DNA from: a virus
Lineage: Duplodnaviria > Caudoviricetes
IMG/VR virus record: IMGVR_UViG_3300036793_000054
Coordinates: 1 to 60,468 of that record
Strand: one strand, 5' to 3'
DNA: 60,468 nucleotides
In this document: positions 1 to 60,468 of the stretch, piece after piece
How positions within the stretch are numbered: position 1 is the first letter of the stretch
Layout: the number at the start of each line of letters is the position of its first letter
The notes under the pieces: model-generated
Seen by the model: the letters and a program-made list of their open reading frames with translations, nothing else
What the model was told of the DNA's origin: nothing
The model's database searches: none
Made by a program: the position numbers and the translations under genes

Positions 1-196
1 GCTCTTGAGCGTCGTCCACAGATCCGCCCCGTCGATGTCGGCCAGCTGCCACAGCCGGGTCAGCGACTGATCCACCGCCGCCGTGCGCACCCCGGTCGTG
101 GTGAACGGCGGCGGGATCACGCCGGAGAACGCGGTATCTTGCTGATACCACACCTGGCCGTACTGGACCGGGCCGAAGATCTGGAACTGGCACAGG
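1..196. repeat. Terminal direct repeat, left copy (circular overlap)
   Basis: 1-196 equals 60273-60468 except position 127 G vs 60399 A. Confidence 0.97.
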
Positions 197-5918: not shown

Positions 5919-5922
5919 GGGA

Positions 5923-7516: not shown

Positions 7517-8304
7517 CACATCGCTCGAGGGATATCCGGGCTGAACACCCGCGCCCGGCGCGGCCTGCTCGCCGGGTTGATCGCCGACAGCCACAGGTCG
7601 ACCTTGTAGAGGCCAGTCCGGCCGATCTTGAAGAAGTCCATCGGATCCACCACGGCGATCGACACACCCTGCCGCGACACCGACGTGACCCGCTCCGGCA
7701 GGCGGCAATCCGCCGAGCCGCAGCTGAACAGGTTCAGCTCGTGCGCCAGCTCGACACAGGCGGCCACGCCCGACTCCGGCGCCGCCTCGCCGTAGGTGTA
7801 CTGGATCAAGGTGTCATCGAAGACCTTCGACCAGCGGTCGCCGTCCGTGCGCTCCAGCCAGCCGCCGGGCGAAAGACGCCAGGAGGAGAAGATCTCGCCG
7901 TTGATCGTGACCTGCTCGATCGCGGTCACCTGGTCGTGCGGCAGCTTCACCGCGTACGGGTTCGCCAGCAGCCCCATGTACTGCGGGAACCACGCGAAGC
8001 CGACCATGCTGTTCCACCACCAGTAGCCGGGTCCGGACGGACTCAGGCCCCACTGCCGGTAGTACGGGTAGGCGCCGCTGCCCTGCTCGGGTGGCCGCCC
8101 GCGCAGCTCGGCCGTGTAACTGCAGCCGACCCCCGCCCACTGCTCGCCGGAGAGCTTGTAGAGGATCTCGCTGGCCTGCAGCAGGTAGGACGCCCACTGG
8201 TCATCGGCTTCTTCGCCGCGCCACTGCTCCGGCACGTCGTCCGGGGTCGCCCACGCCCCGCACAGGATCTGGCTGCGCGGGGCGGGCTGACCGGGACTGG
8301 TCAC
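7516..8304 (-). CDS. Head-to-tail adaptor, 262 aa
   Basis: ASEILYKLSG, CRLPERVTSVSRQGVS, RTGLYKVDLWL motifs; GTG overlaps major tail stop. Confidence 0.8.
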   Translation of the reverse strand: MTSPGQPAPRSQILCGAWATPDDVPEQWRGEEADDQWASYLLQASEILYKLSGEQWAGVGCSYTAELRGRPPEQGSGAYPYYRQWGLSPSGPGYWWWNSMVGFAWFPQYMGLLANPYAVKLPHDQVTAIEQVTINGEIFSSWRLSPGGWLERTDGDRWSKVFDDTLIQYTYGEAAPESGVAACVELAHELNLFSCGSADCRLPERVTSVSRQGVSIAVVDPMDFFKIGRTGLYKVDLWLSAINPASRPRRARVFSPDIPRAM

Positions 8305-10134: not shown

Positions 10135-12069
10135 TCAGCCGCCAGACTTCGTGTAGGCGCTCATGCCGTCCGTGTTGGTGGGCGGCGCGATGGTGCCGGA
10201 GCTGGCGCCGTTGGGCACCAGCGGCATGACCACCCGCAGCGACTCCAGGCCCTTGAACGCGACCCCTTCGAAGGACTCGCTGAAGGTCTGGTATCGGTTG
10301 CGCAGGTTCAGGTTCGAGTCGCGCACCAGGCCGATGTCCAGCGTGCCGCCATCCAGGAACATCCAGTCGCCTTCGCGATACAACACCGTGTCGACCGCGT
10401 TCGGCCAGCCGGGCACGTTGTCGCCCGCGTTGAGCGTCGCGTAGGTCTGGGCGGGCAGCATGATGCCGGAGATCGCCGAAGCGGTCGCGGCCAGGCCGTC
10501 CAGGTGCCAGGTGACGTTGACGTTGCGGGTACGGAACCAGCCTTCGATGCTGGCCTGCGCGACCGCGAACAGCCCGGACACGTCGCCGGAGGTGTTCATC
10601 ATCCGGGCGAGGTCGGTCTGCAGCATGTTGATCACCCAGAGGGGCATGATCGTGTGCAGCGGGACCTCGCCGTTCAGGCGGTGCCGGTTGCGGTAGTAGC
10701 TGATCACCTTGTCGTAGTTGGCCAGCATCTCGCGAACCGCCGAGAAGCCAGCACCCGAGGCGACCGAGGGCGCACCGTAGACGATCTTCGAGGAGGTCAG
10801 GATGCGCGAGAGCAGCTGATTCTCCGCGAACCGCGAGGCCGCGACCTGGCTGGACTGGTTGGTCGCGTTCACCCATTCCGTGTCGAAGCGGCTGGTCATA
10901 TTGGCGAACTCCAGGCACAGGTACGTGCTGTAGATGCTCGCCTCCACCACGCCGGGGCAGTCGACCACGTAGCAGGTCTTCGGCCCGAACGGGTCGCCCT
11001 GGCTGTCGTTGCCGGACTCGTAGGTGATGTTGTTCGCGCCGTCGTTGATCACCGACTGGTCATTGTCCTGACCCCACACGCCCAGACCATCGGTCATCTG
11101 CAGCGCGTCGAAGGGCAGCCGGTACTGGATGCCGCCGCGTTCCACCCGGAACGGCGTGAGCGCGTCGCGGACCGGGCGGTCCGTCACACCCACCGTGTCG
11201 ATGTCGTAGATGACCTCCAGCGGCAGGCACAGGCCGCCGGACTGGGCCGCTGCGGTCAGCGCCTGCGGTGTGGTCGCCTCATGGATCTTGTCCATGTTCT
11301 CGCTGTAGTTCTGGCCCAGCGTGTGCGAGTCCGGGTAGGCGAACTCGATGTGCACCACGTCGTAGCGGCCACCGCCCGCCGAGGACGCCAGCGCCCGCGC
11401 CTTGTTCACGAACGCGCGGGAGATCGTGTCCCGGTCGGCCACGGTGCCAGCGGTGAAGCCGGGCACGTCGCCGGAGATGACGATGCGGGCGCCGATCTGG
11501 CTCGGCCCGCGTTCCGGGTTGACCTGCTGCTCGCCCGCCAGCGTGCCCAGGTTGCGCTCGCGGCGCTCACCGGCCGCCTGCTGCGACGGGGGCTGCTGGC
11601 CACCCTCACCGCCGTTCGGCGCCTGCTGGCCACCGTTGGGCGCACCTTCACCGCCACCTTCGGAGGCCTGGCCGCCTTCGCCGCCGCCCTGCTCGGCCGG
11701 ATCCGGCTGCTGACCGGACTCCGGCTCGGGGGGCTGCACGTGGTCGCGTGCCGGGTCGTGGCGTCCTTCCAGGGCGGCCAGCGCCGCGTTGCTGCGGGTC
11801 GACAGTTCGTCTCGGCCCTCCAGCGCGGCCAGTGTCGACTCCACCACCTGGTACTGGGCTGCGAACAGCTCCAGCAGCTCGACATTCGCCGGGGTGGTTT
11901 CCTCGGCTGCCAGCTCGGTCGCTTCGGCGCGGATCTTGGTCCGCACTTCGCCCAGCTCCTGGGCGCTCAGGCCGCGCAACTCGGCGGACAGCTGGCCCTG
12001 GATTGCTTCGCGCTCTCGATCACTCTCGGCAGCCGCGAGGCTCCGGATGATCTGGATAATGCGGTCCAC
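10135..12069 (-). CDS. Major capsid (hexamer) protein with N-terminal scaffold-like region, 644 aa
   Basis: Coiled-coil plus low-complexity N-terminus, then ALTAAAQSGGLCLPLEVIYD, RGGIQY, LDGGTLDIGLVRDS. Confidence 0.9.
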   Translation of the reverse strand: MDRIIQIIRSLAAAESDREREAIQGQLSAELRGLSAQELGEVRTKIRAEATELAAEETTPANVELLELFAAQYQVVESTLAALEGRDELSTRSNAALAALEGRHDPARDHVQPPEPESGQQPDPAEQGGGEGGQASEGGGEGAPNGGQQAPNGGEGGQQPPSQQAAGERRERNLGTLAGEQQVNPERGPSQIGARIVISGDVPGFTAGTVADRDTISRAFVNKARALASSAGGGRYDVVHIEFAYPDSHTLGQNYSENMDKIHEATTPQALTAAAQSGGLCLPLEVIYDIDTVGVTDRPVRDALTPFRVERGGIQYRLPFDALQMTDGLGVWGQDNDQSVINDGANNITYESGNDSQGDPFGPKTCYVVDCPGVVEASIYSTYLCLEFANMTSRFDTEWVNATNQSSQVAASRFAENQLLSRILTSSKIVYGAPSVASGAGFSAVREMLANYDKVISYYRNRHRLNGEVPLHTIMPLWVINMLQTDLARMMNTSGDVSGLFAVAQASIEGWFRTRNVNVTWHLDGLAATASAISGIMLPAQTYATLNAGDNVPGWPNAVDTVLYREGDWMFLDGGTLDIGLVRDSNLNLRNRYQTFSESFEGVAFKGLESLRVVMPLVPNGASSGTIAPPTNTDGMSAYTKSGG

Positions 12070-12225
12070 CGCGTATCCCCTTCGCTCGGTCTGTGCACGG
12101 GGCCGACATCAGCCTTGCGGCTGGTGCTCGGTGGACCTATGGACTACCGGCACGGGAAACGCCCCGTCTGCCACGAAGGCTATGACGGGGCGCAACCGGG
12201 ACACTCGGTGTTGCGTACTTGCGGA

Positions 12226-12384
12226 TCAGGCGCTGGAGTCGTCCTCTTTCTCGGTCTTCATCGCGGCCAGGATCTCGTCCGCCGCGCGTCCGGCAGCCGC
12301 CTCCGGTGTGTGATGTGTCGGCAGGTAGTTGTCGAAGTGATCTTCCAGGATGACAATCAGCTTCTCGCGGTCCAGCTTCCTCAT
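12226..12384 (-). CDS. Hypothetical protein, 52 aa (not in ORF track)
   Basis: MRKLDREKLIVILEDHF..., GGAGG upstream. Confidence 0.6.
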   Translation of the reverse strand: MRKLDREKLIVILEDHFDNYLPTHHTPEAAAGRAADEILAAMKTEKEDDSSA

Positions 12385-12397
12385 TGCCGCCTCCGGT

Positions 12398-12619
12398 TCA
12401 GTCGTTGATCGCGTACGGGCTGCGTCCGGCCAGGATGATGCCCGGCTGCAGGTAGGTTCCCGCCTCGCAGGCAGCGAGGTTCGTGGTGATCAAGTGCTCA
12501 TCGCCCAGCTCGGGTGCCGCGATCGTCTTGGCTTGGGTCGCACTCGCCGCGACCACCACGACCTCCCGCGCGTTCGCCCCGGTCTGCACCAACCAGACGT
12601 AGAGCCGATCAATCGTCAT
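12398..12619 (-). CDS. Hypothetical protein
   Basis: Compact ORF, GC3-biased. Confidence 0.6.
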   Translation of the reverse strand: MTIDRLYVWLVQTGANAREVVVVAASATQAKTIAAPELGDEHLITTNLAACEAGTYLQPGIILAGRSPYAIND

Positions 12620-12669
12620 TGATCACCGGCTCGGCACCATCCGACTCGAACGCGGCGTCATACAGATCC

Positions 12670-12966
12670 TCAATGGACATTGGTCTTTGCCTTCCTCGTA
12701 GCGCGGTAGTCGAACCACCAGTTGACCGAGGAGGTGATCAAACCTCCGACGATCACCGCGAGCCAGCCGACCGCGCGCACCGTCCACACGGTGGCGTAGA
12801 AGGTGGCGATGGCGCCACCGACCAGCATCCACAGGCACAGCTCCAGCATCCAGATCCCGAAGATCCAGTAGGCGATGGAGTGGTGACGGCTGCGGTGCCG
12901 CCCGGTCCAGGTGACGGTGTAGCGCAGAATGCGCGGGCCGAACGAACTGGTGATCCGTGATCTCAT
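12670..12966 (-). CDS. Hypothetical membrane protein (leaderless)
   Basis: Hydrophobic helices; ATG 7 nt after TAACAT. Confidence 0.65.
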   Translation of the reverse strand: MRSRITSSFGPRILRYTVTWTGRHRSRHHSIAYWIFGIWMLELCLWMLVGGAIATFYATVWTVRAVGWLAVIVGGLITSSVNWWFDYRATRKAKTNVH

Positions 12967-12973
12967 GGCACCG

Positions 12974-13002
12974 ATGTTACCCGGTCATTCGTCGGGTGAC
13001 AA
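12974..13002 (-). promoter_or_regulatory. Repeated promoter/operator, copy 1
   Basis: TTGTCA-CCCGACGAATGACCGGG-TAACAT. Confidence 0.85.
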
Positions 13003-13152
13003 GGAGAGATCGAGCTGGCGCAGCGCGGCCAGGCGCTCCTCGATCGACACATCGGCCGCCGCCGCCAGCCGACCGAGCACGGACAGGCCGAGCTCCTCGC
13101 CCTCGGGGAACTCTGGCACCAGGTCCGTTGTGCCGTTAATCGTCCCATTCAT
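12985..13152 (-). CDS. Hypothetical protein
   Basis: MNGTINGTTDLV..., ACCGAGGAG RBS. Confidence 0.55.
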   Translation of the reverse strand: MNGTINGTTDLVPEFPEGEELGLSVLGRLAAAADVSIEERLAALRQLDLSLSPDE

Positions 13153-23444: not shown

Positions 23445-26107
23445 TCGTCCCGGATGCGCAGCACCCGGTCACGCATATCCCTGGTCTGCTGGGCCGTTGT
23501 GCCGGTGCGCCCGGCCGCGTCGTCCATCTCCGCCAACCGCCGGATGTCGCGCATCGCCGGGGTCTCCGGCTGCTGCGCGGCGGCGATCGAGTCCCGCAGC
23601 TCGGGGTCCATGTCGCTGGCGTTCTGCGGGAAGATCCAGGCCTGGACGACGTGACACCGGCAGCCGTCGTGATCGCCTGGGTGGTAATAGTCACCCAACC
23701 ACGCGGTTGCCTTGCTGGTGGCCAACCGCGCGTCGCTCATCGAGTCGTACCGGTGATCATCCAGCGCCTTGTGCGGGTGGAACGTGTTGCGCGGATCCGT
23801 GCCGTACACCCACATGTAGCCGAACGCCGGACCAGCCTTCGCGGTGATCAACTCGGTGATCGTGCCGCCCAGCGCCAGGCCGCCCAGTGGCGCCGAGCTC
23901 GAGCCGCCTTCCTTCAGGCCTGCCGGTGCGCCGCCGATCGTGGCCAGCGCCGTGCGGATGTCGCCCGCGCGCACCACGTCGTCCGGGTTCGCCTCGCCGG
24001 TCGGCGCGTGTCCCTCACGGCCATACAGCCGATCCATGGTGCGCTGCTTGAGCTGCTCGTGCAGCTGGTGCCAGGCGCCGCGCTGTCGGCCGGTGAACGT
24101 GCGCCGCAGTGCCGAGACCGCGCCGAGCTCGAGGTTGAGCAGCTTCTGGGCGACCAGGCAGGCGTTCTTGATCGCATCGGCGGTCCAGGCGATGAACTTC
24201 GCTTCGAGGTAGGCGAACGCGGCGGCCAGCAGTGCGTCCTCGGTGACACCCAGCTCGGCCACCTTGTCCGGGCCGAGGAAGGCAGCGAGATCATCGGCGT
24301 GCTCGGCCAGGTCGCCCTTGTCGATCTTGCGCTGTGCCGCCGAGCGAATCCGCGCGTTTGCTTTTTCGATGGCGCGCGCGATCGCCGCGTCGGCCGCGAC
24401 CGTGAGCCGCTCCAACAGTGCCGTGTCGATGGCGGCCAGCTTGTCACCTGTGATCACCCGCAGCGCTGGTACCGCCGTGGTACCAGCCGCCGTGAGCGCG
24501 AGCTGCTCGCTCATCCGTCCGGTACCACTGCTCGGTGGCGGGCTCGGGTTCTGGTGCGGGATCGAGCCAGCGCCCGGCTTGGCCTCCGGATGTGCGGGCA
24601 GTGCCGCGCGCTGCGGTGGCGTCACCTGGTTCTGGCCGTTCGCCGGACTCGGTACCACCGTGGTACCACTACCGGCGGGTGGCGGGATCGTGATGCCCGC
24701 GCCGGGCAGCAGCCGGGCGATCAGCGTGGCCGCCGTGGTCGGGTCGGTGCTGACCTTGCTCGCCAGCATCTTGATCAAGTCGTCGTTGGTGGGCTCATCG
24801 TCGACGTTGAAGCCGAGCGCCTCGCGCAACGTCTGGCCGCTGATCTGGAAGCGGTCGTATGCGTCCTTCGCGTCCTGCGCGCGGTTCGCGTTCTCCGTGA
24901 CCTTGCCTGCGTCGTACCAGACAACGACCTGTTCGACCTCTTGCGGGTCCAGGCCGTAGCCACCCTCGGTGACCGGCTGAATCAGGCTCGGCCGCAGGTA
25001 GCCCTCGGTGAAGCTGTCGACGATCATCCGCACGCCGGGCTCGAGGTGGTTGCGGAACGTCGTTGCGTCGATCACGTACGCGTTCCAGTGATTGGTGTCC
25101 TGCAGGCCGGTCACCACGGTGGGCGGCACGTCGATCGACTCGGCCATGCGGGTCAGCGAGCGCTCCAGCTTGTCGTTCAGGTCGGCGCTGGTCTCGCGCT
25201 CGAACGTGACGTGCCGGACCGCCTCGATGTCTTCCTTGTCCGCTTCGACGATGATCGGCGCGACCGCGCCACCCTCACCCTCGTTGACGATCGGCGCCAG
25301 GATCGCCGCGTTCAACTCCTGCACGAAGTCCTGTTCACCCTGCTTGTCGTCCGCCCCGAACGGAGACTTCAGGCTCATGTTCTGGGTGACGAACAGGATG
25401 CCGTTCGCCGCGATCCGGCTGCGCGCCGCCGCCCGCAGCTCGCGACCGGACAGGATGATGTCCTCCAGCACGTCCTGCAGGCTGCGCAGCGGGCTGTCCG
25501 ACAGCTTCTTGAACCTCGGGTGCGGCACCCACAGCCGGATCAAAACCTCGGTCTTCGGATCGATCTTGCGACCGGCACGCCCCGGCACCTCCACGATGCC
25601 CAGCGTCGCGCCCGACCCCATCGGCTGCACCTCGTCAGTCGAGAGGATCTGCCAGCGCTCCTTCTTCGTCGCCGGGTCGGTGCTGCCGTGCAGCCAGCCC
25701 TCACCCGCGATCGAGAAGCAGGTATCGGCCACGCCCATGAAGCCGTAGCCGTTGCGCCACGGCAGCTTGTTCAGTGCGTCCTGGGCAGCCTTCTTCAGCG
25801 CTGGCGAGAGCGTGCACTTGTCCGAGTCGACATCGATCGGCTCATCCTCGCCTTCGACCACCTGGCCGATCTTCAGTGCCACCTTGGAGATCGCGTTCGC
25901 CCGGAAGCGCATCGCGCCCGCCAATTCCGGCACCAGATCCCGATAGTCCCAAGCGTGCGTTTGCCAGCCCATCCGCATCGCGGTCAGCGTGTTGACCACC
26001 TTGCGGTTCGTGAGATCGATCCGCGCGCCCGACGCCGTCATCACGCCAGCGGCAACCTTCTTGCCGTCCGGGCCGATGATGCGCTGAGCACCCCACGATC
26101 CGCTCAC
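23426..26107 (-). CDS. Portal protein fused to MuF-like domain, 893 aa
   Basis: WQTHAWDYRDLVPEL, IRLWVPHP, DSPLRS, NHWNAY portal motifs; Pro-rich linker; C-terminal HPGDHDGCRC. Confidence 0.88.
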   Translation of the reverse strand: MSGSWGAQRIIGPDGKKVAAGVMTASGARIDLTNRKVVNTLTAMRMGWQTHAWDYRDLVPELAGAMRFRANAISKVALKIGQVVEGEDEPIDVDSDKCTLSPALKKAAQDALNKLPWRNGYGFMGVADTCFSIAGEGWLHGSTDPATKKERWQILSTDEVQPMGSGATLGIVEVPGRAGRKIDPKTEVLIRLWVPHPRFKKLSDSPLRSLQDVLEDIILSGRELRAAARSRIAANGILFVTQNMSLKSPFGADDKQGEQDFVQELNAAILAPIVNEGEGGAVAPIIVEADKEDIEAVRHVTFERETSADLNDKLERSLTRMAESIDVPPTVVTGLQDTNHWNAYVIDATTFRNHLEPGVRMIVDSFTEGYLRPSLIQPVTEGGYGLDPQEVEQVVVWYDAGKVTENANRAQDAKDAYDRFQISGQTLREALGFNVDDEPTNDDLIKMLASKVSTDPTTAATLIARLLPGAGITIPPPAGSGTTVVPSPANGQNQVTPPQRAALPAHPEAKPGAGSIPHQNPSPPPSSGTGRMSEQLALTAAGTTAVPALRVITGDKLAAIDTALLERLTVAADAAIARAIEKANARIRSAAQRKIDKGDLAEHADDLAAFLGPDKVAELGVTEDALLAAAFAYLEAKFIAWTADAIKNACLVAQKLLNLELGAVSALRRTFTGRQRGAWHQLHEQLKQRTMDRLYGREGHAPTGEANPDDVVRAGDIRTALATIGGAPAGLKEGGSSSAPLGGLALGGTITELITAKAGPAFGYMWVYGTDPRNTFHPHKALDDHRYDSMSDARLATSKATAWLGDYYHPGDHDGCRCHVVQAWIFPQNASDMDPELRDSIAAAQQPETPAMRDIRRLAEMDDAAGRTGTTAQQTRDMRDRVLRIRDEWLNVA

Positions 26108-34488: not shown

Positions 34489-34655
34489 CCGAAGTCATCG
34501 AACGCGTTGATGTGCTGCGGCTTGGCGCAGGTCCGGTAGCCCGGGCGCGGCCTCTTGTTGCACCCGGTCATCGCGCACTTGTTGCTCTGCTTCTTGTGCG
34601 CGTCGTGGCGCACCGTGTGTGTGGTCGGAACCACGAAGTCCTTCAGAAAACCCAT
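34485..34655 (-). CDS. Small Cys-rich protein
   Basis: CAMTGC...C...H; TGATG overlap. Confidence 0.6.
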   Translation of the reverse strand: MGFLKDFVVPTTHTVRHDAHKKQSNKCAMTGCNKRPRPGYRTCAKPQHINAFDDFG

Positions 34656-34879
34656 CAGTCCTCGTCCTCCTCGTCCCATGGCTCCTCGGCACCACAGCGG
34701 CGGCACTCGCCACCGTCCACCGGGTAGTCGTGATCTTCCATGTCCCACTCGCACCAGCCTTCGGGTACGACGTGGTGGATCTCGGTATCGAACGGGTAGC
34801 CGCACACGGAGCACCTGCGGTCCGGCGCGCGCTGGTAGTCGCCGGGACTCTCGTACTCGTGCTGCTCGGTCTCGCTCAT
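34655..34879 (-). CDS. Small acidic Cys/His protein (leaderless)
   Basis: CSVC...H...C...H...CRRC; ATG 6 nt after TAACAT. Confidence 0.65.
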   Translation of the reverse strand: MSETEQHEYESPGDYQRAPDRRCSVCGYPFDTEIHHVVPEGWCEWDMEDHDYPVDGGECRRCGAEEPWDEEDED

Positions 34880-34885
34880 GAGTCC

Positions 34886-34915
34886 ATGTTACCCGACGCC
34901 ACGCGGGAGACACAA
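34886..34915 (-). promoter_or_regulatory. Repeated promoter/operator, copy 9
   Basis: TTGTGT-CTCCCGCGTGGCGTCGGG-TAACAT. Confidence 0.8.
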
Positions 34916-34940
34916 TGCCCTTCGACCTGCGGTGATGACC

Positions 34941-34969
34941 GTGTGTCCCGCCAAGTCACCGGGTGAGAT
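34941..34969 (+). promoter_or_regulatory. Repeated promoter/operator, copy 10 (variant; upstream of transfer operon)
   Basis: GTGTGT-CCCGCCAAGTCACCGGG-TGAGAT followed by three TGGTACC. Confidence 0.65.
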
Positions 34970-35011
34970 GGTACCGTGGTACCGAAGTGGTACCAACGAG
35001 GAGAGATCAAC

Positions 35012-35170
35012 ATGAGCATGAAGCCCCTGGTGGCGATCGGTGCCAGCGTGGTCCTGGTCGGCGCGGTACTGGCCAGTCAGTGGTACCTCGCTGTCGGGAT
35101 CTTCGTCGCCTACGTTGGATGGACGCTCACCCGGACACCAGCCCGGAACCGAGGAGGGATGCACCGATGA
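35012..35170 (+). CDS. Small membrane protein, 52 aa
   Basis: GAGGAG RBS; two hydrophobic stretches; ATGA overlap with next gene. Confidence 0.7.
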   Translation: MSMKPLVAIGASVVLVGAVLASQWYLAVGIFVAYVGWTLTRTPARNRGGMHR

Positions 35171-36048
35171 ACAAGATCGACCTACGTCAGGTGCGGCTGC
35201 GGATCGGCGCGCTGATCGTGGTCGCCTGCGCCGCCGCCATCAGCTTCATGTCCAGCCGCGACCTCGCCGTCATGGCGCACTTCGGCTGGCTGTCCTGGCT
35301 GTTCCCTGTCTGCCTGGACGCCGTGGCCGCCGTGGCCCTGGACATCTGGATCCGGCGCACCGCCGCCCAGCGGATCGCGGGCTGGCTCGGCATGACCGCG
35401 ATCACCCTGTCCACCGCGTCCAATGCGGCCGACCACTACCTGTCCACCGGCATGGTCCTGGCCGCCGTGCTCGGCGTGGTACCGCCCGCCATGCTCGCCT
35501 GGCTGCTGCTGGTCCTGCACAAGCACGCCACCCCGGTACCGGTCACGCACCCGGTCTCTGTGCCCGGCGGTCTCGTGCACGCGCCAGGACCAGACCCAGC
35601 TGCGGTACCAGTGCCGGTACCGCAGGACCAGATCATCGCCGAGTACCAGCCGGTCCCGGTACCGCGCGAGATGGTCCCGGAAATGCGTTACTCGGTACCA
35701 GCCAGCGCACCTATCACCCCGGTGCCGGTCACCCGCGAGGACCGTCCGGTACCGCCGGAGACCGATGCCGAGAAAACCATGACCATGCCGATCATCGGTC
35801 GCAAGGTCGGTGAGCCGGGCGAGACCAGGACCAAGGTCCAGCCCGCCGTGCGCAAGGCCAGTGCCAGTGCGACTGCCAAGCCTCGACTGGTCTCGGTGCC
35901 GGTCGGCCACAGCAATGAGGAGCTGGCCGCCAAGCTGGCCGAGACCGGAGCGGTACCGCCGCGCCGGGAGATCATGCGCCAGTTCGGTATCGGTACCGGC
36001 CGCGCCACCACCATCGCCCGCAGGGCCGAGGAGCTGATCGCATCATGA
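35167..36048 (+). CDS. DUF2637/Spd-like membrane protein with C-terminal HTH, 293 aa
   Basis: 4 TM (AAAISF...WLFPVCLD...STASNAADH...VVPP), Pro/Val linker, PRREIMRQFGIGTGRATTI. Confidence 0.75.
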   Translation: MNKIDLRQVRLRIGALIVVACAAAISFMSSRDLAVMAHFGWLSWLFPVCLDAVAAVALDIWIRRTAAQRIAGWLGMTAITLSTASNAADHYLSTGMVLAAVLGVVPPAMLAWLLLVLHKHATPVPVTHPVSVPGGLVHAPGPDPAAVPVPVPQDQIIAEYQPVPVPREMVPEMRYSVPASAPITPVPVTREDRPVPPETDAEKTMTMPIIGRKVGEPGETRTKVQPAVRKASASATAKPRLVSVPVGHSNEELAAKLAETGAVPPRREIMRQFGIGTGRATTIARRAEELIAS

Positions 36049-37946
36049 GCAAGCACCCGCTCGCCCGCCTGCTCGGTGACGGTGTCATCGCCGGGGTCAC
36101 CACCTGGGCCGTCTGGCGCTTCCTGCTCAAGCCCATGGGCCGGGGCGTCAGCCACCTCGGGTACCGCTGGCGGCGCTTCCTCACGCCCCTGTGGCTCTCG
36201 CTCGGCATCGAGATCACCGCGATCATCTGGCACCGGCTGGCACCGTGGTACTGGTGGCTGGCACTGGCACTGCCGGTCTTCGGTGGTACCGCTGCGGTAC
36301 TGGGACCACGCCTGTCGACTGGCTGGTCCCGGCTGGCACTGGTCCTGGTACCGGAGTCGATGGACGGTGGCCGCAAGGGCGCCCTGGATCGAGTACCAGA
36401 ACGGATCTACTCGGCTGCGGTACTGAGCTACCTCGGCCTGTGGCTGGCACTGCGGGTCGGTACCGGTGCCAGCGCGCTCACCACCTACGGCTTCTGGGCG
36501 GGCGTGATCGGCTTCGGTGGTACCTGGTGGTACCACCGCCGGATCCGGACCGCCGGGATCGCGGACCGCTACGCCCGGTCCTGGAAGACTCTCGCGAACC
36601 CGGACACCGGTCCGATCAAGGAGCTGCACGGGTCGCGGTGCGTGGAGGCACGGGGTAGGGGACGCAACGTCGCCTACCTGACCGTGCGGCTGAAGGGCGG
36701 CTTGACCGTCGCCGACCTGTCCAACCGGCTGGACCAGCTGTGCAGCTTCTGGAGCCTGCGGCGCGGTGCCATCACCCTCTCCGAAGATGAGAGCAACGCG
36801 CGGCGCGCCTACCTGCAGATTCTGCGCGGGGACCCGTGGCGCCACGACATTCCGCACCCGCTGCCCGAACCCGGGACCGTCTCTCTGCTCGGTCTCCGCG
36901 AGACGATACCGATGTTGGGCCTGCTGGCGAACGGTGAGCAGGAGACCATGCGCACCCGGCACCTGCAGATCATCGGCAAGAACGGCTCCGGCAAGACCGT
37001 GCTGCTGGAGGACCTGATGATCTGGATCTCCAGCTTCACCGATGCCCAGATGGTCGGCGCCGACATGGCATCCGGTGCCACGTTCGCGATGTGGCAGCCG
37101 GTCATGCTGCTGCCGGTCGCGATCAACTACGAGCAGACGCTGGAGCTGCTGCGCCGAGTGGTCGCCGAGATCGAGTACCGCGAGGCCAAGCTGGGCGTCG
37201 ACAAGGCGACCGGGCAGGCCAACGACTCGATCGTGATCAGCCCCGAGGAGCCAGCGCTGTTCTGCCTGGTAGACGAGTTGCCAAAGTTTGTCAGTCATTG
37301 CCAGATGCTCGGCGCCAAGGGCAAGGAGGGCATTCACCTGCTCAACGTGATCGGCCAGCAGGGGCGCAAGGTCCGAGTCTGGGTGATCGCCTGCGCGCAG
37401 AACGGCTCGAAGGCGAACATGGCCACCAAGGAGCTCCAGGCCCAGATGTCCACGATCAGCTTCTACCTGAGCGAGCACGCTTCGCGGGTGCTGTGGGGTG
37501 CCGACGTGCGGCAGGGCTGGTCGTCCTCGGGGCTGAAGAACGGCCAGGCGCTGCTGCAGGACGACGAACACACCGAGCCGAACGTGTTCAAGGCCGTCTT
37601 CGCCACAAAGGCGCAGCGTGCGGCACACATCCGCAAGGCCTCGGCGGTGCCGCGACCGGCGGGGATCTGTCCTGGCCTGTTCGCGGCGGTGGATCCGGTT
37701 GAGCCAGTGACCGTGGTTGACGCCCCGGTAACCGAGTCGAAGACCGATGCGCTGGATCGGCTGATCATCCAGACCCTGTGCGACCGGCCGCAGGCGCACT
37801 GGAAGGAGCTGGCCGAGCTGGGCGGGGTCGCGAAGCCGACGCTGTACCGGAGCTTGAAGCGCCTGGTCAACCTGGGTGAGATCCACTCGATCGGCAAGGG
37901 CTGCTACCGGATCGGCCGCGACCCCGACATGAGCCAGGCAGCCTAA
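36045..37946 (+). CDS. TraB-like FtsK/SpoIIIE DNA translocase, 633 aa
   Basis: N-terminal TMs, Walker A GKNGSGKT, Walker B LFCLVDE, GRKVRVWVIACAQ, C-terminal wHTH (KELAELGGVAKPTLYRSLKRL). Confidence 0.85.
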   Translation: MSKHPLARLLGDGVIAGVTTWAVWRFLLKPMGRGVSHLGYRWRRFLTPLWLSLGIEITAIIWHRLAPWYWWLALALPVFGGTAAVLGPRLSTGWSRLALVLVPESMDGGRKGALDRVPERIYSAAVLSYLGLWLALRVGTGASALTTYGFWAGVIGFGGTWWYHRRIRTAGIADRYARSWKTLANPDTGPIKELHGSRCVEARGRGRNVAYLTVRLKGGLTVADLSNRLDQLCSFWSLRRGAITLSEDESNARRAYLQILRGDPWRHDIPHPLPEPGTVSLLGLRETIPMLGLLANGEQETMRTRHLQIIGKNGSGKTVLLEDLMIWISSFTDAQMVGADMASGATFAMWQPVMLLPVAINYEQTLELLRRVVAEIEYREAKLGVDKATGQANDSIVISPEEPALFCLVDELPKFVSHCQMLGAKGKEGIHLLNVIGQQGRKVRVWVIACAQNGSKANMATKELQAQMSTISFYLSEHASRVLWGADVRQGWSSSGLKNGQALLQDDEHTEPNVFKAVFATKAQRAAHIRKASAVPRPAGICPGLFAAVDPVEPVTVVDAPVTESKTDALDRLIIQTLCDRPQAHWKELAELGGVAKPTLYRSLKRLVNLGEIHSIGKGCYRIGRDPDMSQAA

Positions 37947-37951
37947 GCAGC

Positions 37952-37987
37952 AGACACCCCCCGGGTCTCGTCTCCCGGGGGGTGTCT
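37952..37987. terminator. Terminator hairpin between convergent genes
   Basis: 14-bp stem AGACACCCCCCGGG/CCCGGGGGGTGTCT. Confidence 0.8.
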
Positions 37988-37998
37988 CGTCTCTGGTG

Positions 37999-38160
37999 TT
38001 ACTTGCGCTTGCCGAGCAGTTTGCACTCGGACACGGTGCGCGCCGGGAACTTGGCTTCGAACTTCTCAATTGCCTTGGTCTGGCTCTCGGCCGCGACGTT
38101 GACGAAGCCCTGCGACTTACCATCCAGGTAGGTGATCTGGTAGGTCCACTGTTCGGCCAT
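37999..38160 (-). CDS. Small protein, paralog A1
   Basis: ACCGAGGAGG RBS; MAEQWTYQITY. Confidence 0.7.
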   Translation of the reverse strand: MAEQWTYQITYLDGKSQGFVNVAAESQTKAIEKFEAKFPARTVSECKLLGKRK

Positions 38161-38192
38161 TTTGTCCTCCTCGGTTCGTGCTGACATGGACC

Positions 38193-38222
38193 ATGTTACC
38201 CGACGTGGTTAGCGGGACACAA
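38193..38222 (-). promoter_or_regulatory. Repeated promoter/operator, copy 11
   Basis: TTGTGT-CCCGCTAACCACGTCGGG-TAACAT. Confidence 0.85.
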
Positions 38223-38239
38223 TAGGCATCTACCTGCGA

Positions 38240-38404
38240 TTACTCGTTGACCCTGCAGGAGTTGACCGTGCGGTCCGGGTGCGCCGCCTTGAACTTCTCG
38301 ATCGCCGCCGCCTTGCTGCGCGCCGACACGTTGATCGTGCCCTTCGGTACGCCACCGCCGCTGTAGCTGATCTCGTAGTTGTGTTCGCCCGCTTTAGCTG
38401 GCAT
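38240..38404 (-). CDS. Small protein, paralog A2, 54 aa (not in track)
   Basis: MPAKAGEHNYEISY...AIEKFKAAHPDRTVNSC; GAGGAGG RBS. Confidence 0.7.
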   Translation of the reverse strand: MPAKAGEHNYEISYSGGGVPKGTINVSARSKAAAIEKFKAAHPDRTVNSCRVNE

Positions 38405-51227: not shown

Positions 51228-52132
51228 ATGTCCAAGACCTCTCCGTGGTGGCCGTACACGATCTTGTGCCCGTAGCTGTCGAACACTGGCCTGCCGCGCC
51301 CATCCACCGCAGCATGATCGGCCACCGCCGCAGTCGGGCTGTGCGTCGGCCGCTTCGGGCCACCCAGCAGCGTGTTGCGCAGCCGCTCGCCGGTCAGCGT
51401 CCAGTTGTTCTCTGCGATGAACGCCAGCGCGCCGGACACGGACTGGTCCGCGAAGTCGTTCTCCAGCGCGCGGCGGATGATCTTCATGAACGCGGGCACG
51501 TTCCCCGTCTTGCCCAGCCGCTCGTAATGCTCCTGCGCCAGCCGAGTCGCCCGCTGGTTCAGGGTCAGCGGCTTCTTCTCCTGGCTGTCTTTGGTCTCGG
51601 GGACGGCTTCAGGGACGGCCTGGAATAGAGCCGACTGCCCGGTGAGCTTGCTCGCCGGATCTTCTTGATCAGTCTTCTTAAATCCTTCTTCTACTATCGA
51701 CGGGTTTTCAGGCGATGACTTTCCAGTCGATGAAACGACCTGCGGTTTTGCACCGTTCTCGCCGGTCGGCTTCGTTGACGGGTTTTCCGTCGATGTAAAC
51801 CCCGTCAATGGGCGCGCGATCGGGTCGTCGGTGATGTGCCAGACCCAGCGCCAGGAGGACTTGCCTGCGCTGATCCGCTCGCGATGAAGGTAGCCAGCGG
51901 TCTCCAGCTCGCGCAGCCCACTGCTCACCGCGTCGCGCCCTTCGACCATGGATCGATCGAGCTGCTCACGGGACATCTGCCAGCCGGACTCCGGCAGCGA
52001 GAGGAAGTAGCCGAGCAGGCATCGCGCGGTTGCCCGCAGCGGTACCGGCAGCTTGCCGCGCAAGAACGCGTTGGTGACGATCTGGAAGTCTCTCGCCGGT
52101 ACCGGGCCGATGGAGACGGCGAACTCGGTCAT
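51224..52132 (-). CDS. Replication initiator (HTH Rep), 302 aa
   Basis: FQIVTN...ARCLLGYFLSLP..W...EGRDAVSSGLRELETAGYL; repetitive ENPS linker; upstream of helicase. Confidence 0.8.
   Translation of the reverse strand: MTEFAVSIGPVPARDFQIVTNAFLRGKLPVPLRATARCLLGYFLSLPESGWQMSREQLDRSMVEGRDAVSSGLRELETAGYLHRERISAGKSSWRWVWHITDDPIARPLTGFTSTENPSTKPTGENGAKPQVVSSTGKSSPENPSIVEEGFKKTDQEDPASKLTGQSALFQAVPEAVPETKDSQEKKPLTLNQRATRLAQEHYERLGKTGNVPAFMKIIRRALENDFADQSVSGALAFIAENNWTLTGERLRNTLLGGPKRPTHSPTAAVADHAAVDGRGRPVFDSYGHKIVYGHHGEVLDI
51661..51806. other. Candidate replication origin inside rep
   Basis: GACGGGTTTTC at 51699 and 51777 beside AT-rich 51661-51698. Confidence 0.55.
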
Positions 52133-52485
52133 GCCGCAGCCGCCTTCCAGGATCGGTACCTGGCGATATTGCAGGCCGAGCACACTAGTTCGTAATTGTG
52201 CAAAGCATCCGGACCGCCTGCTGATTTCGGCACAACGTGATCAACTTCAGCCCAGGTGAATCCTGGCATTGGAACCCAGCCAGCATCCCCCGCAACGCGA
52301 ACACGTCCCATGTTCGTCGGCTGTGCGTAAATCTTGCACCAGCCCTCGCCCTCGAAAAACTCCCACCAGCCGGGCATCTCAATCACTGTGTCGGGCAGGC
52401 TGGGATGCGCGAGTGGCGCCTGGCAATCCGTGCATTTGTTGCCGTACTTCTTGATCAGAATCGGCGCAGCCTGACTGGTCCTCAT
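52129..52485 (-). CDS. HNH endonuclease
   Basis: CTDC...VDHVVPKSAGG...NYELVCSACN. Confidence 0.85.
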   Translation of the reverse strand: MRTSQAAPILIKKYGNKCTDCQAPLAHPSLPDTVIEMPGWWEFFEGEGWCKIYAQPTNMGRVRVAGDAGWVPMPGFTWAEVDHVVPKSAGGPDALHNYELVCSACNIARYRSWKAAAA

Positions 52486-55981: not shown

Positions 55982-56803
55982 TCAGGTGTTGAAGTTCGGT
56001 GCGTTGAACGAGGCCCCGACGCTACGCGCGATCGACTGGAACCCGGACAGCATCGAACGCAAGTTGTGCATGGTGTCCGCAACCGCCTTGGCCAGCGTCT
56101 CCGTCTCCATCTTGCGTCGATACAGCTGCTCGCACGCCACCAGGGCGTCCGCCTCGCGCACCTCCTTGGACCGGCCGGTCGACTCGATGATCGCCTTCGC
56201 GTGCGCCAGCTCGTACTCCAGCGCCGCGTTGTGCGCCTCCACCACGCATCGACGCTGGAAGTACTGGCCCTGCTCCAGCCGCTGGGCGATACTCACCAGC
56301 TGCAGCTCGACATCCGCAGGCGTGTAGACCTGGGTCGGGTCGATCGCGGCCAGTACCGACTCAATCGGGTCCACCGGCACCACAGCAGACTCCGGCAGCA
56401 CCATCACGCCGGTCAGCTGCTCCTGGGTGCCCATGTCCGGGTTGTAGCCGCTGCTCTCGTCCGACGTGTCCCACGGTGGCGAGCCGTCCTCCCAGGGCGC
56501 ATCGAGGCCTGCCGCATCGGCGGCGGCTTCGCTCGGCGCACCCTGGATGTGCTCGGCAACCGCAGCCTGGACGGCAGTCCGCGTGCCGATCGCAGGCAGA
56601 TCCTCGCCCTGCACGTCGGTCTGCTCGGTGATCACGATCGGCCGCTCGGCGTGGTATTCCTCCGGCGGGATGCCGAGCGTCACGCCGCAGGCGCAGTGCA
56701 CCGCGCCCGCAGAGGTCAGCTCGATCTTCTCGGGGCTCTGCTGCGCGCAGCCGCGATGCAGCGGGCGCCAGTTCGTTTCCAGCAGGATCTCGGCGATCTT
56801 CAC
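55982..56803 (-). CDS. Hypothetical protein, helical C-terminus (recombination operon)
   Basis: Between ERF and ssb. Confidence 0.7.
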   Translation of the reverse strand: MKIAEILLETNWRPLHRGCAQQSPEKIELTSAGAVHCACGVTLGIPPEEYHAERPIVITEQTDVQGEDLPAIGTRTAVQAAVAEHIQGAPSEAAADAAGLDAPWEDGSPPWDTSDESSGYNPDMGTQEQLTGVMVLPESAVVPVDPIESVLAAIDPTQVYTPADVELQLVSIAQRLEQGQYFQRRCVVEAHNAALEYELAHAKAIIESTGRSKEVREADALVACEQLYRRKMETETLAKAVADTMHNLRSMLSGFQSIARSVGASFNAPNFNT

Positions 56804-57906
56804 GACTGCACCGCAGCCTTGTCCTCGGCACGCTCAGCGTCGGTCGGGAACTGGACCCGGCGGGCGACGTAGAGCGCCTTGCCGAACGCGTTGCCGTCGT
56901 GCAGCCGCACCAGCAGGCCGAGCTGGTCCGCGTAGATGATGATCTTGTTGACCTGGTCGCGTGACTTCGAGGCCTGCGCTGCGGTCAGCGCCTTGCTGAT
57001 CGTCACCATCTGGTTGTCGGTCGTGTCCGGCCAGCCCTGACCGGCCGTCGCCCGGCGAGCGATCTCCTTGCTCGCTGCCGACAGCACCTCGTTCGCACGC
57101 TGCTCGCGCCACTCCGGCGTGTCCTGCTCCTGGCCGATCTCGCGGGCGCCCAGCTCGGTCTTGAGCGTCTCGACACCGGCCGCCATCGGGTCGCCGTTGA
57201 CCTTCTCCCGCGCTTCGTGGACAGCCTGGGTCTGCGCCTGCTGGTCGTCCAGTTTGGCTGCGGTCGGCTCGGTGACGCCGTTGCTGCCGGTGGTCATGGT
57301 CGCCTGCTGTGGTGCCACGCCAGCCTGGTTGCCGTCCACGTAGGCCTTCGTCGGCTGACCGGCCGCCTGCGCCTGAGCCTCGCGGCGCTCGCGCAGGATC
57401 CGCTGGGCGTCCGTCTCCGTCTCGTCCTGGTACTCGGGACGCTCGTTGTCCGGGTCAGCCATGTCCTTGAATGCGATCGCGTAGACCTGGGTGAACGCGG
57501 ATTTCATCGCGCCGGTCATCGCCTTCGGGACGCTCTTGTCGCCGGAGTCGAGACCCTCACCGACACCTTCACCAACCAGCGTGCTGCCGTCGATCAGGCT
57601 GGTGAAGGTGTAGCGCACGGTGATGATGCTGCGGTGCCAGTGAGTGATCTTGTCGCCCCACTTCTCATCATGCTTGGTCGTCTCGTAGGACTCGGTCTCG
57701 ATGTTCAAGACCCGAGACTGCGGCATGATCGAGAACTTGCGGAAGGCCTCGCCGAGCTCGTTGACCACGTCATCGGCCTTGCGGAAGTTGTAGTTCGGTC
57801 CTCCGCGAACTTCCATCCGGCCGCTCTTGCTAATGCTGCGCACCTCGTCCATGACCTCGCCGACCGACGCCAGGATGGCAGGGTGGGCGGTTGTCTCCTC
57901 GGACAT
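56800..57906 (-). CDS. ERF-family single-strand annealing protein
   Basis: YNFR..DDV, DGS....GEGLDSGDKSVPKAMTGAMK. Confidence 0.85.
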   Translation of the reverse strand: MSEETTAHPAILASVGEVMDEVRSISKSGRMEVRGGPNYNFRKADDVVNELGEAFRKFSIMPQSRVLNIETESYETTKHDEKWGDKITHWHRSIITVRYTFTSLIDGSTLVGEGVGEGLDSGDKSVPKAMTGAMKSAFTQVYAIAFKDMADPDNERPEYQDETETDAQRILRERREAQAQAAGQPTKAYVDGNQAGVAPQQATMTTGSNGVTEPTAAKLDDQQAQTQAVHEAREKVNGDPMAAGVETLKTELGAREIGQEQDTPEWREQRANEVLSAASKEIARRATAGQGWPDTTDNQMVTISKALTAAQASKSRDQVNKIIIYADQLGLLVRLHDGNAFGKALYVARRVQFPTDAERAEDKAAVQS

Positions 57907-57922: not shown

Positions 57923-58459
57923 TCAGTTGATCTTGCGGGACTTGGCGTAGGCCGTCAGACCGTCTTCAACCGCGACCGCGACGCTACGGCCGGAGGCCTG
58001 GATGCGGTCGCGGGCGGCCAGGTAGGGCGCGGTCGGCACCGTGAAGCGCAGCCGGTAGCGGTCCACGCCGTAGCTGCGCAGGGGCAGCCGCTGCCGCTGG
58101 ATGCGCCGCACCGCGAGGTCCACCTTGGCCTGGATCTCGGGATCGCTCGCGCCGCGCTTGCGCATCCGCTTCGTGGTGGTCTCCACCGCGCGGGCGATGC
58201 GCTCCTTGATCAGCGCCTGGTGCTTCGCGATCTGTGCGTGCGTGACCTTGCTGGCCGCGTCGAACAGGATCGCTCGCGCCACGTCGTTGACGTTCTGACC
58301 GTTGTAGGCGGCCACCGCGCGCACGGCTTCGTGCAGGGCGTGCGTGATCCGCACGTCTACTTCCGTCTCGTCGGTCTCGTTGCTGGCGCTGGACTGCGGC
58401 TGAGCGCGAGCGGCATAGCCGCGCGCCAGCTGTGCCAGCTCTCGTGCAGTCGTGTTCAT
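57923..58459 (-). CDS. Basic protein, possible ribbon-helix-helix regulator (leaderless)
   Basis: VDVRITHALHEAVRAVA...VNDVARAIL and a similar second segment; ATG 6 nt after TAACAT. Confidence 0.6.
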   Translation of the reverse strand: MNTTARELAQLARGYAARAQPQSSASNETDETEVDVRITHALHEAVRAVAAYNGQNVNDVARAILFDAASKVTHAQIAKHQALIKERIARAVETTTKRMRKRGASDPEIQAKVDLAVRRIQRQRLPLRSYGVDRYRLRFTVPTAPYLAARDRIQASGRSVAVAVEDGLTAYAKSRKIN

Positions 58460-59276: not shown

Positions 59277-60468
59277 CTAGAAGGTGCGGAACGTCAGTGC
59301 GTCCTTGACGCCGTCGCTGGTATTGATGGTGCGCTTGATGCCAGTCAAGCTGACATAGATCTCCGCGCCGATCGAGTCCTCATCCTCATCGGTCAACATC
59401 ACCACGTCCTGCAGCTGCAGGCGCGGATCGCCCACGATCGACACATCCTGGATGTAGGGGCGCGGCTGCTTGGTGTCGGCCAGCAGCAGGTTCATCAGCG
59501 TGGTGGTCGTCGGAGGATCCTGCAGCCAATCGTTGGCGGGCACGTTGAGCACGCGCGGTCCGTACTGGCTGACCGAGGTCGGGTCGGAGACCATCGGGCT
59601 TGCGTCGGAGAAGTCCTGCACGATCGTGCCGCCGACGTGCAAGAACGGCGTGTTGTCGTCCACGGAAAACTGGAGCGTCTGGCTGCTGTTCGCGCTGATC
59701 ATGTTCAGCTGCATAGACCGCGAGTCCTGGCCGTTGATCGCCGCGATGACGTTGACGCCGGAGCCGACCGCCGGGGGGGAACCCTGTGCACTGCTGCCCT
59801 GCTGGTAGGCGGTGAACCCGTTGTACCAGAAGTCCGGTTTGTAGAAGCTCATCCAGTCCTGCCAGGTGAACAGGCCGGACGGACCGGCGCCGCCCGGCTC
59901 GGACGGATCGATCGGGTTGCCGATCCCCTGGGCCTGCGGGTGCCACAGCACGGGGCCGAGTCGGATGGACTGCACGTCGGTATTGCTGACCGAGTAGGAC
60001 AGGTTGGCCAGCGGGGGCACCTGGAACTGGTTGGCCTGCTGTCCTTTGTAGATCGACGAATAAGGTACCGCCGCGCGTCGCTTCGTCGACCAGTTGATCA
60101 TGTTGGCGATGGTGGCCTGGTTCGCCTCCGGATCGATGTCGAACAGCGAATCCAGGCCGTACGTCACCACCGACAGCGACGTGTCCTGCCGGGCCAGGAT
60201 CGTCGCCCGGTTGTCGAAGTGCATGGTGCCGAATTCGTCGGAGTAGATCGCGCCCAGCTCCGCGCCGACCACGCTCTTGAGCGTCGTCCACAGATCCGCC
60301 CCGTCGATGTCGGCCAGCTGCCACAGCCGGGTCAGCGACTGATCCACCGCCGCCGTGCGCACCCCGGTCGTGGTGAACGGCGGCGGGATCACGCCGGAAA
60401 ACGCGGTATCTTGCTGATACCACACCTGGCCGTACTGGACCGGGCCGAAGATCTGGAACTGGCACAGG
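59277..60468 (-). CDS. Minor tail protein, 3' part (joins 1..1533)
   Basis: DEFGTMHFDNR, SVSQYGPRVL, GDPRLQLQDVV tail-hub motifs. Confidence 0.85.
   Translation of the reverse strand, partial: LCQFQIFGPVQYGQVWYQQDTAFSGVIPPPFTTTGVRTAAVDQSLTRLWQLADIDGADLWTTLKSVVGAELGAIYSDEFGTMHFDNRATILARQDTSLSVVTYGLDSLFDIDPEANQATIANMINWSTKRRAAVPYSSIYKGQQANQFQVPPLANLSYSVSNTDVQSIRLGPVLWHPQAQGIGNPIDPSEPGGAGPSGLFTWQDWMSFYKPDFWYNGFTAYQQGSSAQGSPPAVGSGVNVIAAINGQDSRSMQLNMISANSSQTLQFSVDDNTPFLHVGGTIVQDFSDASPMVSDPTSVSQYGPRVLNVPANDWLQDPPTTTTLMNLLLADTKQPRPYIQDVSIVGDPRLQLQDVVMLTDEDEDSIGAEIYVSLTGIKRTINTSDGVKDALTFRTF
60273..60468. repeat. Terminal direct repeat, right copy
   Basis: Matches 1-196. Confidence 0.97.

Follow-up and report, generated by a model that had tools for sequence, protein, structure and literature searches.

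A lineage-specific GGTACC array in the transfer-type genes of a 60-kb actinophage, with a DUF2637 membrane protein as its candidate reader

The IMG/VR record IMGVR_UViG_3300036793_000054 (60,468 nt, completeness rating 100%), referred to here in its whole length as the window, is the genome of a complete 60-kb tailed actinophage from soil and carries a dense array of the palindromic hexamer GGTACC. The array (34970..36534, no strand assigned) comprises 19 exact copies of the word, in the extended form YGGTACCR, spread over an intergenic region and the three genes of a module that resembles, by analogy, the genes for transfer and spread (TraB/Spd) on actinomycete plasmids. The array is under selection at the level of the DNA and not of the protein, and across related phages it is conserved in its place and not in its word. 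The reading favoured here, to which a probability of about one half is assigned, is that the copies would form a docking array for the C-terminal helix-turn-helix (HTH) of the DUF2637 membrane protein encoded beneath them, and would serve as a lineage-specific clt- or centromere-like handle.

Exact copies of GGTACC start at 34970, 34978, 34989, 35082, 35478, 35535, 35604, 35616, 35658, 35694, 35748, 35952, 35992, 36160, 36285, 36347, 36459, 36519 and 36529, so that the array measures 1,565 bp from its first to its last copy; every one of these positions had been given in an earlier note, made from the sequence alone. The window as a whole holds 33 copies, compared with 6.18 +/- 2.58 (maximum 13) in 100 dinucleotide-preserving shuffles, and the 1,621-bp stretch 34940-36560 holds 19, whereas 0.4 would be expected at the rate found elsewhere in the window. 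In that stretch no hexamer is more strongly enriched than GGTACC (Poisson p about 1e-25). The earlier note had assumed a GC content of about 70% and one chance occurrence per 3 kb; the GC content is 0.67 and the chance rate nearer to one per 4-10 kb, and the excess is therefore larger than was stated. The flanks extend the word, with a 5' pyrimidine at 18 of the 19 sites and a 3' purine at 17. The variants GGTACT and AGTACC, previously described as several, number 6 in 34940-36560 and 20 in the remaining 58.8 kb. No GGTACC is found between 36535 and 43134, which leaves the part of the third gene that encodes the ATPase and the winged helix free of copies, as the same note had observed. Outside the array and two secondary clusters described below only six copies remain, which is the chance level and not a depletion.

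Three plus-strand genes lie under the array. The first encodes a small hydrophobic open reading frame (ORF) of 52 amino acids (35012..35170) with a single site, in a Trp-Tyr-Leu context; small hydrophobic ORFs occupy the equivalent position in the related loci L005, L007, L031, L035 and L040. The second (35167..36048) encodes the 293-residue DUF2637 membrane protein, which matches PF10935 over residues 13-114 (38.4 bits, gathering cut-off 22.8), has a Pro/Val-rich linker and a C-terminal HTH, and carries nine sites, eight of them x-Val-Pro via GTA and one Gly-Thr. The third (36045..37946) encodes a 633-residue FtsK/SpoIIIE/TraB-like translocase, hereafter the pump, in which the architecture of TraB-type pumps is found: an N-terminal membrane domain (residues 1-175, 36045..36569), an FtsK/SpoIIIE-type ATPase with a Walker A motif at about residues 311-318, and a C-terminal winged helix at residues 568-611. 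The pump has a PHROG FtsK/SpoIIIE-like match at 7e-15 and an HTH_24 match of 22.4 bits (cut-off 21.9); its Pfam PF01580 match, at 20.2 bits, lies below the cut-off of 24, and this family is annotated on most of its 25 relatives. Its gene carries six sites, all within the membrane domain, where the array ends.

The contexts of the sites argue for selection on the DNA. Besides three non-coding copies there are 16 in coding sequence, and these occupy all three codon phases: four sites encode Gly-Thr (GGT-ACC), nine x-Val-Pro (xxG-GTA-CCx) and three are read as xGG-TAC-Cxx (Trp-Tyr twice, Gly-Tyr once). Synonymous resampling was performed by keeping the peptides fixed and redrawing the codons 5000 times from the phage-wide usage of a crude gene list. 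The 16 coding sites compare with an expectation of about 2.4. By segment, the expected and observed numbers are 0.77 and 1 for the small ORF, 0.41 and 9 for the DUF2637 gene, 1.24 and 6 for pump residues 1-175, and 0.11 and 0 for the rest of the pump, and none of the 5000 redraws reaches the observed number in either of the two main segments. The opportunities offered by the peptides are taken up to a large extent, namely by all four Gly-Thr pairs, nine of the 16 eligible Val-Pro pairs and all three xGG-TAC-C contexts, and the share of GTA among the valine codons rises from 5% phage-wide to 24% in the array region. If the array were a by-product of composition or of repeated peptides, devoid of a DNA-level function, it would draw on the Pro/Val-rich linker and the Trp/Gly-rich membrane domains, which do raise the number of opportunities for the word. 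The excess over synonymous resampling shows that neither composition nor peptide repeats explain the array, and the three non-coding copies, the use of all three phases and the recurrence of the pattern with other words in relatives speak against this explanation as well, which was rejected and is of negligible probability. Thus, the DNA-level signal that had been proposed from the non-coding sites, the three phases and the rare GTA codon is upheld.

The pump family comprises 26 proteins, namely that of the window and 25 relatives in a large protein collection, mostly on contigs of about 60-62 kb; the closest of them, P0002 and P0003, share 59-61% identity in the pump. An alignment of these 26 sequences was used to retrieve 20 viral, 5 genomic and 24 metagenomic loci, several of the metagenomic ones being duplicates of viral ones; the full alignment was needed, since queries with a single protein or with a two-sequence alignment found one relative only. 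The related loci include two Amycolatopsis contigs and one Mycobacterium metagenome-assembled genome. Four whole relatives are syntenic with the window, with the operon on the opposite strand in all four and terminal repeats in two, and each of them has a single dominant cluster of its own lineage's word, at the operon locus.

The position of the arrays was examined with an unbiased scan, in which the best 1.6-kb window of the most enriched hexamer of each locus was placed relative to the pump start. The start of this best window falls within -1700 to +100 relative to the pump start in 19 of 24 related loci, L016, L017, L026, L027 and L028 being the exceptions, and binned counts indicate that the arrays run from about -1200 to +800 and stop at the end of the pump membrane domain. 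Among 12 further metagenome loci five are strongly enriched, three weakly and four not, these last being distant relatives with no more than about 25% identity. Synonymous resampling of 16 operons gave top z values of 4.6-16.6, with a value below 5 only in the array-less L016. The words themselves differ. GGTACC is shared by the window and L007; TGGCAC(Y) or GGYRCC is found in L005 and L035; GGTACT or CCTGGT in L006 and L030; CGGWCC, sometimes together with GGTACC, in L008, L011-L015, L018-L023, L031 and L040; CRCCAG in L022, L025 and L029; CTCCAG in L042; and CRACCA in L043.

Individual sites also turn over. Between the window and L007, which have the same word, no site column is shared in the DUF2637 gene and two of six are shared in the pump N-terminus, and at one aligned place the window has CCG-GTA-CCG (Pro-Val-Pro) and L007 has CCC-GGT-ACC (Pro-Gly-Thr), the word being shifted by one nucleotide. 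Four of the six pump N-terminus columns are common to the window and L005, where L005 has GGCACC or GGTGCC in place of GGTACC. Copies of the non-palindromic words are found on either strand (11 and 10 in L035, 8 and 11 in L042), often as inverted pairs 1-5 nt apart, and the array is therefore without the polarity of KOPS or of TraB sites.

Such self-complementary words and inverted pairs could also act as stems, in which case the selected feature would be a secondary structure of mRNA, antisense RNA or single-stranded DNA. Compared with dinucleotide shuffles, segments of the array do have the more stable folds (z -4.4 and -2.8, against -1.5 to +0.2 in four control segments). However, any array of palindromes gains stability automatically, the z value of the first array segment is only -0.4, and the site positions turn over between relatives as described above. 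In L043 the complementary partners are unbalanced (14 CAACCA but 4 TGGTTG; 5 CGACCA but 15 TGGTCG), while the degenerate CRACCA stands at 19 to 19 across the strands, which fits a protein reading a degenerate word and not base pairing; and the array of L005 has nine copies of GGCACT and none of the complement. An explanation by structure is thus improbable. Quite improbable, too, is a link with restriction-modification or another defence system, with the array as decoy, target or sensor. GGTACC, GGWCC, GGYRCC and CCWGG-like words resemble classic restriction-type palindromes, and words that differ between lineages would be expected of an arms race. Nevertheless, the DNA methyltransferase families PF00145 and PF01555 have no match in the window, the relatives' TGGCACT, CRACCA and CTCCAG are non-palindromic words present on both strands, and the sites are concentrated at one conserved place and not avoided, with GGTACC at chance level elsewhere.

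The protein that reads the word was sought through covariation between words and recognition helices. The pump recognition helix is nearly constant (SRATVYRRL-like) across the word classes. L006 and L031 have the identical pump helix SRATVFRRL with words of the GGTACT type and CGGWCC, respectively, and L035 and L008 the identical helix SRATVYRKL with TGGCACT and GGWCC; in both pairs the DUF2637 helices differ. Conversely, the window and L007 share the word GGTACC with pump helices that differ at four of nine positions. The DUF2637 helix changes with the class of word, being T-x-R-A-[T/G]-x-I-A-R with the GTAC words, S-x-[R/K]-A-L-[R/K]-[L/I] with GGWCC and E-[Y/H]-E-V-R-Q-V-L with CRCCAG. In partial Mantel tests on 17 de-duplicated loci the word is correlated with the DUF2637 HTH helix given the backbone distance (r 0.48, p 2e-4) and not with the pump recognition helix (r 0.06, p 0.29), and at block level in 22 loci the values are 0.50 for the DUF2637 HTH and 0.23 for the pump, all of which are to be read with the caution that shared descent confounds such covariation and that partial Mantel tests are liberal. 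The expectation that homologous operons carry other hexamers covarying with the sequence of an HTH is thus borne out, for the C-terminal HTH of the DUF2637 protein. This membrane-anchored domain is accordingly the most likely reader of the array, at about even odds, as judged from the sequences. It corresponds to 35914..36042 on the plus strand; an AlphaFold2 model of the last 66 residues of the protein (mean pLDDT 82.6) has three helices, at residues 23-33, 39-46 and 50-65.

In the classical TraB-clt arrangement the array would instead be the loading site of the pump, whose own winged helix would read it through helix 3. The pump does have a C-terminal winged helix, with part of the array inside its gene, and winged HTH domains are the means by which TraB and TraA bind the repeated short words of clt (PMC3583192, PMC4170104). 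The full 28-residue winged-HTH block of the pump is also weakly correlated with the word (partial r 0.23-0.26, p about 0.015). The likeness extends to element-specific, repeated short words located by, or overlapping, the gene for an FtsK-like pump of double-stranded DNA: 8-bp repeats in pSVH1, TGACACC in pWTY27, 9-bp repeats in pJV1, and the clt of pIJ101 (PMC3583192, PMC4170104). However, known clt loci measure 50-200 bp, lie on the 3' side of tra and consist mostly of direct, sometimes inverted, repeats of 5-9 bp (PMC3583192), whereas the present array occupies 1.6 kb at the 5' side of the pump gene and in the genes upstream, is palindromic or, in relatives, two-stranded, lies in coding DNA, and has a word that does not follow helix 3 of the pump. 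With the helix pairs cited above, which combine one helix with different words and one word with different helices, this makes the classical arrangement unlikely. The earlier note had proposed a clt- or centromere-like locus bound by one of the operon's HTH domains; the transfer-type operon and the tracking of the word by the DUF2637 HTH stand in its favour, while the winged helix of the pump does not track the word and the features of known clt loci were not found.

A conserved pump helix would better suit a more conserved element located after the pump gene. A GC-rich, terminator-like hairpin at 37961..37996 on the plus strand contains four copies of GTCTC (37965, 37970, 37984 and 37989). 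Summed over 20 loci, GTCTC/GAGAC occurs 35 times in the 150 nt after the pump gene compared with 8.0 expected, with none in 7 of the 20; the cluster is seen in the window, L011-L015, L018, L020, L021 and L031. Since this cluster and the pump recognition helix are both more conserved than the array, the hairpin may be a separate, more conserved cis site and a candidate for the pump's own site.

Several observations, besides the confounding by descent, weigh against the DUF2637 HTH as the reader. The mapping of word to helix is not one-to-one, as L005 and L035 share the word TGGCAC with the DUF2637 helices SSRATKIANL and SQKASELLAA, respectively. A word of 6-8 bp is short for a classical HTH dimer. 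A fold search of the HTH model against PDB gave no match at E <= 0.001, the best sub-threshold rows being generic winged-helix/HTH folds and the FtsK gamma domain (TM about 0.45). L016 and L017 retain the HTH but are without an array at the usual place. In both loci a stretch rich in GGGWCCC/GACCC (L016 6300-8100, L017 6450-8050) is located downstream of the pump gene, overlapping minus-strand genes. Judging from this stretch, the array in these two loci may have moved downstream. The filamentous lifestyle of the host is an assumption that rests only on the relatives in Amycolatopsis contigs. Finally, GGTACC forms two further clusters at the DNA level, in the portal and initiator genes, which a tether at the pump does not explain and which could indicate a different reader.

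These two clusters were missing from the earlier note. The first (24468..24667), in a low-complexity, Gly/Thr/Val/Pro-rich stretch of the minus-strand portal gene, has five sites, with two pairs spaced 11 bp apart, compared with 0.74 expected, a number reached in 0 of 3000 synonymous redraws. The second (52041..52160), near the 5' end of the minus-strand gene for an O-like/DnaD-like initiator, has three sites at an exact period of 57 bp, each x-Val-Pro via GTA, compared with 0.22 expected (3 of 3000 redraws). From its position the initiator-gene cluster could be a second acting place of the same reader or part of an origin. Both clusters fit the possibility that some other DNA-binding protein of the phage or its host, such as an initiator-like HTH protein or a regulator, reads the array, whose role would then be silencing of, or feedback on, an opposite-strand operon, a roadblock to transcription, or titration of the initiator in the manner of iterons. 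The three copies upstream of the operon, and the opposite orientation of the operon in the four whole relatives, agree with this as well. However, the portal and initiator-gene clusters are absent in the relative G001, which has the same word, and L005 and L007, both close relatives, lack the promoter-proximal intergenic copies; iterons are as a rule much longer; and the sole conserved feature is an array over two membrane-protein genes whose word tracks the HTH encoded there. Another reader is therefore regarded as possible but doubtful.

Under the favoured reading, in which the DUF2637 HTH docks on the array, the words would have been written into the 5' half of the TraB/Spd-like module through selection on synonymous codons and, in the linker and the membrane helices, also on loosely constrained peptide segments. 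The reader would be encoded under the array itself, and many bound copies of the DUF2637 protein would hold this part of the phage genome at the membrane, beside the FtsK/TraB-like pump. The array would thus be a lineage-specific handle by which the double-stranded phage genome is moved or kept in a probably filamentous host, and a clt- or centromere-like function is, by analogy, plausible. Binding by the protein, the identity of the reader, tethering to the membrane, hand-off to the pump and any effect on transfer, stability or expression are points that we infer. A predicted complex of the membrane domains of the DUF2637 protein (residues 1-125) and the pump (residues 1-180) scored 0.00, which counts neither for nor against binding.

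The three non-coding copies (34970..34994, no strand assigned) are spaced 8 and 11 bp apart in the 132-bp divergent intergenic region 34880-35011, and could provide feedback on the operon's own transcription. Such autoregulation could operate, on the strength of three intergenic copies in this one phage only. The copies had been described as abutting the promoter; the start codon at 35012 does follow them at 18-42 nt, but the promoter itself is inferred, and a scan of 34600-38300 for a sigma-70-type consensus promoter was negative.

A tentative extension of the favoured reading is self-addressed delivery of DNA, in which each lineage would place many copies of its own short word, as a label, in the genes for a membrane-anchored reader and the pump, and the pump would move or retain only genomes with the matching label, allowing virion-free spread of double-stranded DNA between hyphal compartments or cells. 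If this were true, the phage would distinguish itself from co-resident relatives, and the rapid switching of word and reader helix would resemble incompatibility or specificity groups; the DNA word would, in addition, dictate parts of the proteins, namely the Val-Pro linker and the Gly-Thr and Trp-Tyr pairs of the membrane domain.

Among the known systems, the closest published precedent is SpdA2 of the plasmid pIJ101, which binds palindromes in its own gene and affects segregational stability (PMC4170104). Its site, sps, is a 12-bp palindrome present in one to three copies and highly conserved between plasmids (Thoma et al. 2014, PMC4170104). In both cases a short palindrome lies within a spread-type gene, in its coding part, on a mobile element of actinomycetes and is kept via the choice of codons, sps being bound by the product of its own gene and the array presumably so; nine of the 19 array copies are in the DUF2637-HTH gene and three in the region upstream of the operon. 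Thus, a palindromic hexamer embedded in coding sequence, regarded as atypical in the earlier note, is less so than was thought, given the precedent on pIJ101. The sps site concerns segregational stability rather than transfer itself. The likeness has its limits. The array, unlike sps, consists of 19 copies of a 6-8 bp word distributed over 1.6 kb and three genes and changing between relatives. Members of the SpdA family have 117-163 residues and a conserved N-terminal DNA-binding region (PMC4170104), while the candidate reader is no small soluble SpdA but a membrane protein of 293 residues whose HTH is C-terminal, and the element is a tailed phage; homology between the two is unlikely.

Two further systems may be compared with the array. 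The KOPS of FtsK and the SRS of SpoIIIE are strand-polar words of 8 bp which are spread over the chromosome and orient the motor. They share with the array the short word, a small helical DNA-binding domain and an FtsK-type motor, but the array is palindromic, or two-stranded in relatives, and confined to one block of 1.6-2 kb. Plasmid and prophage centromeres of the parS/sopC type resemble it as arrays of sites that act as a handle for NTPase-driven positioning of DNA, here in a phage in which the tyrosine and serine recombinase families (PF00589, PF00239) have no match in the window. The array differs from ParABS systems in that its sites are in coding sequence and the motor is a membrane pump of the FtsK/TraB type; a ParA/ParB pair was not found among about 40 of the 95 crude ORFs, scanned with PHROGs or Pfam, and there is one weak PHROG match to a partition protein ATPase (E 4e-4) at 57926-58459.

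Conjugating plasmid-phages of Streptomyces with tra genes, pZL12 and pFP4, are cited in PMC4170104 and PMC3583192, and a Streptomyces plasmid record among the loci studied here (L068) combines DUF2637, tra-like genes and a phage terminase. In the Streptomyces anulatus plasmid NZ_CP108377.1 (L067), 12 of the 17 copies of GGCTCA/TGAGCC in a 7.8-kb locus fall within 600 nt (1-600). This stretch belongs to the 3' part of a hypothetical gene that precedes the tra-like genes, and its positional counterpart in the sister record L068 is annotated as DUF2637. Papers on cultured Streptomyces phages merely list an FtsK-like gene in the portions available (PMC13587820, PMC11536984), and a full-text literature search, with supplements and subscription journals outside its coverage, found no published description of such an array.

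If the favoured reading holds, the array would be a clear case of two overlapping codes, in which an array over two membrane-protein genes overrides codon usage and shapes the peptides, and in which word and reader switch together between related phages. It would provide a handle on the poorly understood TraB/Spd-like modules of many uncultivated actinophages and would make a long-standing question testable, namely whether tailed phages that infect filamentous actinomycetes use plasmid-style pumping of double-stranded DNA to move or retain their genomes. The lineage-specific pairs of word and HTH would likewise constitute a natural panel for studying the evolution of short-site specificity.

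The remainder of the genome is that of a tailed phage. PHROG matches in the window include the tape measure protein, major head protein, portal and large terminase, as well as a DnaB-like helicase, the O-like/DnaD-like initiator, SSB and an Erf-like annealing protein. The genes are on the minus strand nearly throughout, the one plus-strand three-gene operon under the array being the exception. The nearest cultured phages by terminase have an identity of at most about 35%. The ORFs at the two ends of the window (1-1533, truncated by the end of the record, and 59277-60468) are neighbouring genes in four relatives, for example at 10476-13019 in G001, so that the record represents a whole genome, circularly permuted. 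A reading of the array as a pac or cos site or as an origin was found to be unsupported, the array being located away from the genome ends in the relatives with terminal repeats. Searches of the operon against a plasmid collection (blastn) and of the pump against a phage collection (tblastn) gave no match, and tblastn of the pump against the plasmid collection gave only 10 weak Streptomyces matches with 25-29% identity.

Divergent from the operon lies a 74-residue ORF (34658-34879, minus strand) with two CxxC pairs, which appears zinc-ribbon-like and has a weak Pfam match. It was considered as a reader and set aside, being strongly acidic and having its position occupied by an unrelated 419-residue ORF in L004.

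The 8-mer ATGTTACC has 12 exact copies in the window, including 34886-34893 and 38193-38200, which flank the plus-strand operon; with one mismatch allowed there are 24 matches compared with 11.8 expected, a number reached in 0 of 100 shuffles. It often lies a few bases from a gene start on the same strand, reading GGTAACAT(GG) directly before the ATG, and its appearance is that of a -10 box (TAACAT) in phage promoters that give rise to leaderless transcripts. The first copy of the array is located within ATGGTACC, a one-mismatch variant of this box. Second clusters of array-type words were also observed about 1.5 kb past the pump gene in two relatives, in L006 at 5800-6220 (G003 56524-56941, with eight GGTACY in G003) and in L007 at 7200-7600, where 14 GGWCC fall in one 400-nt bin.

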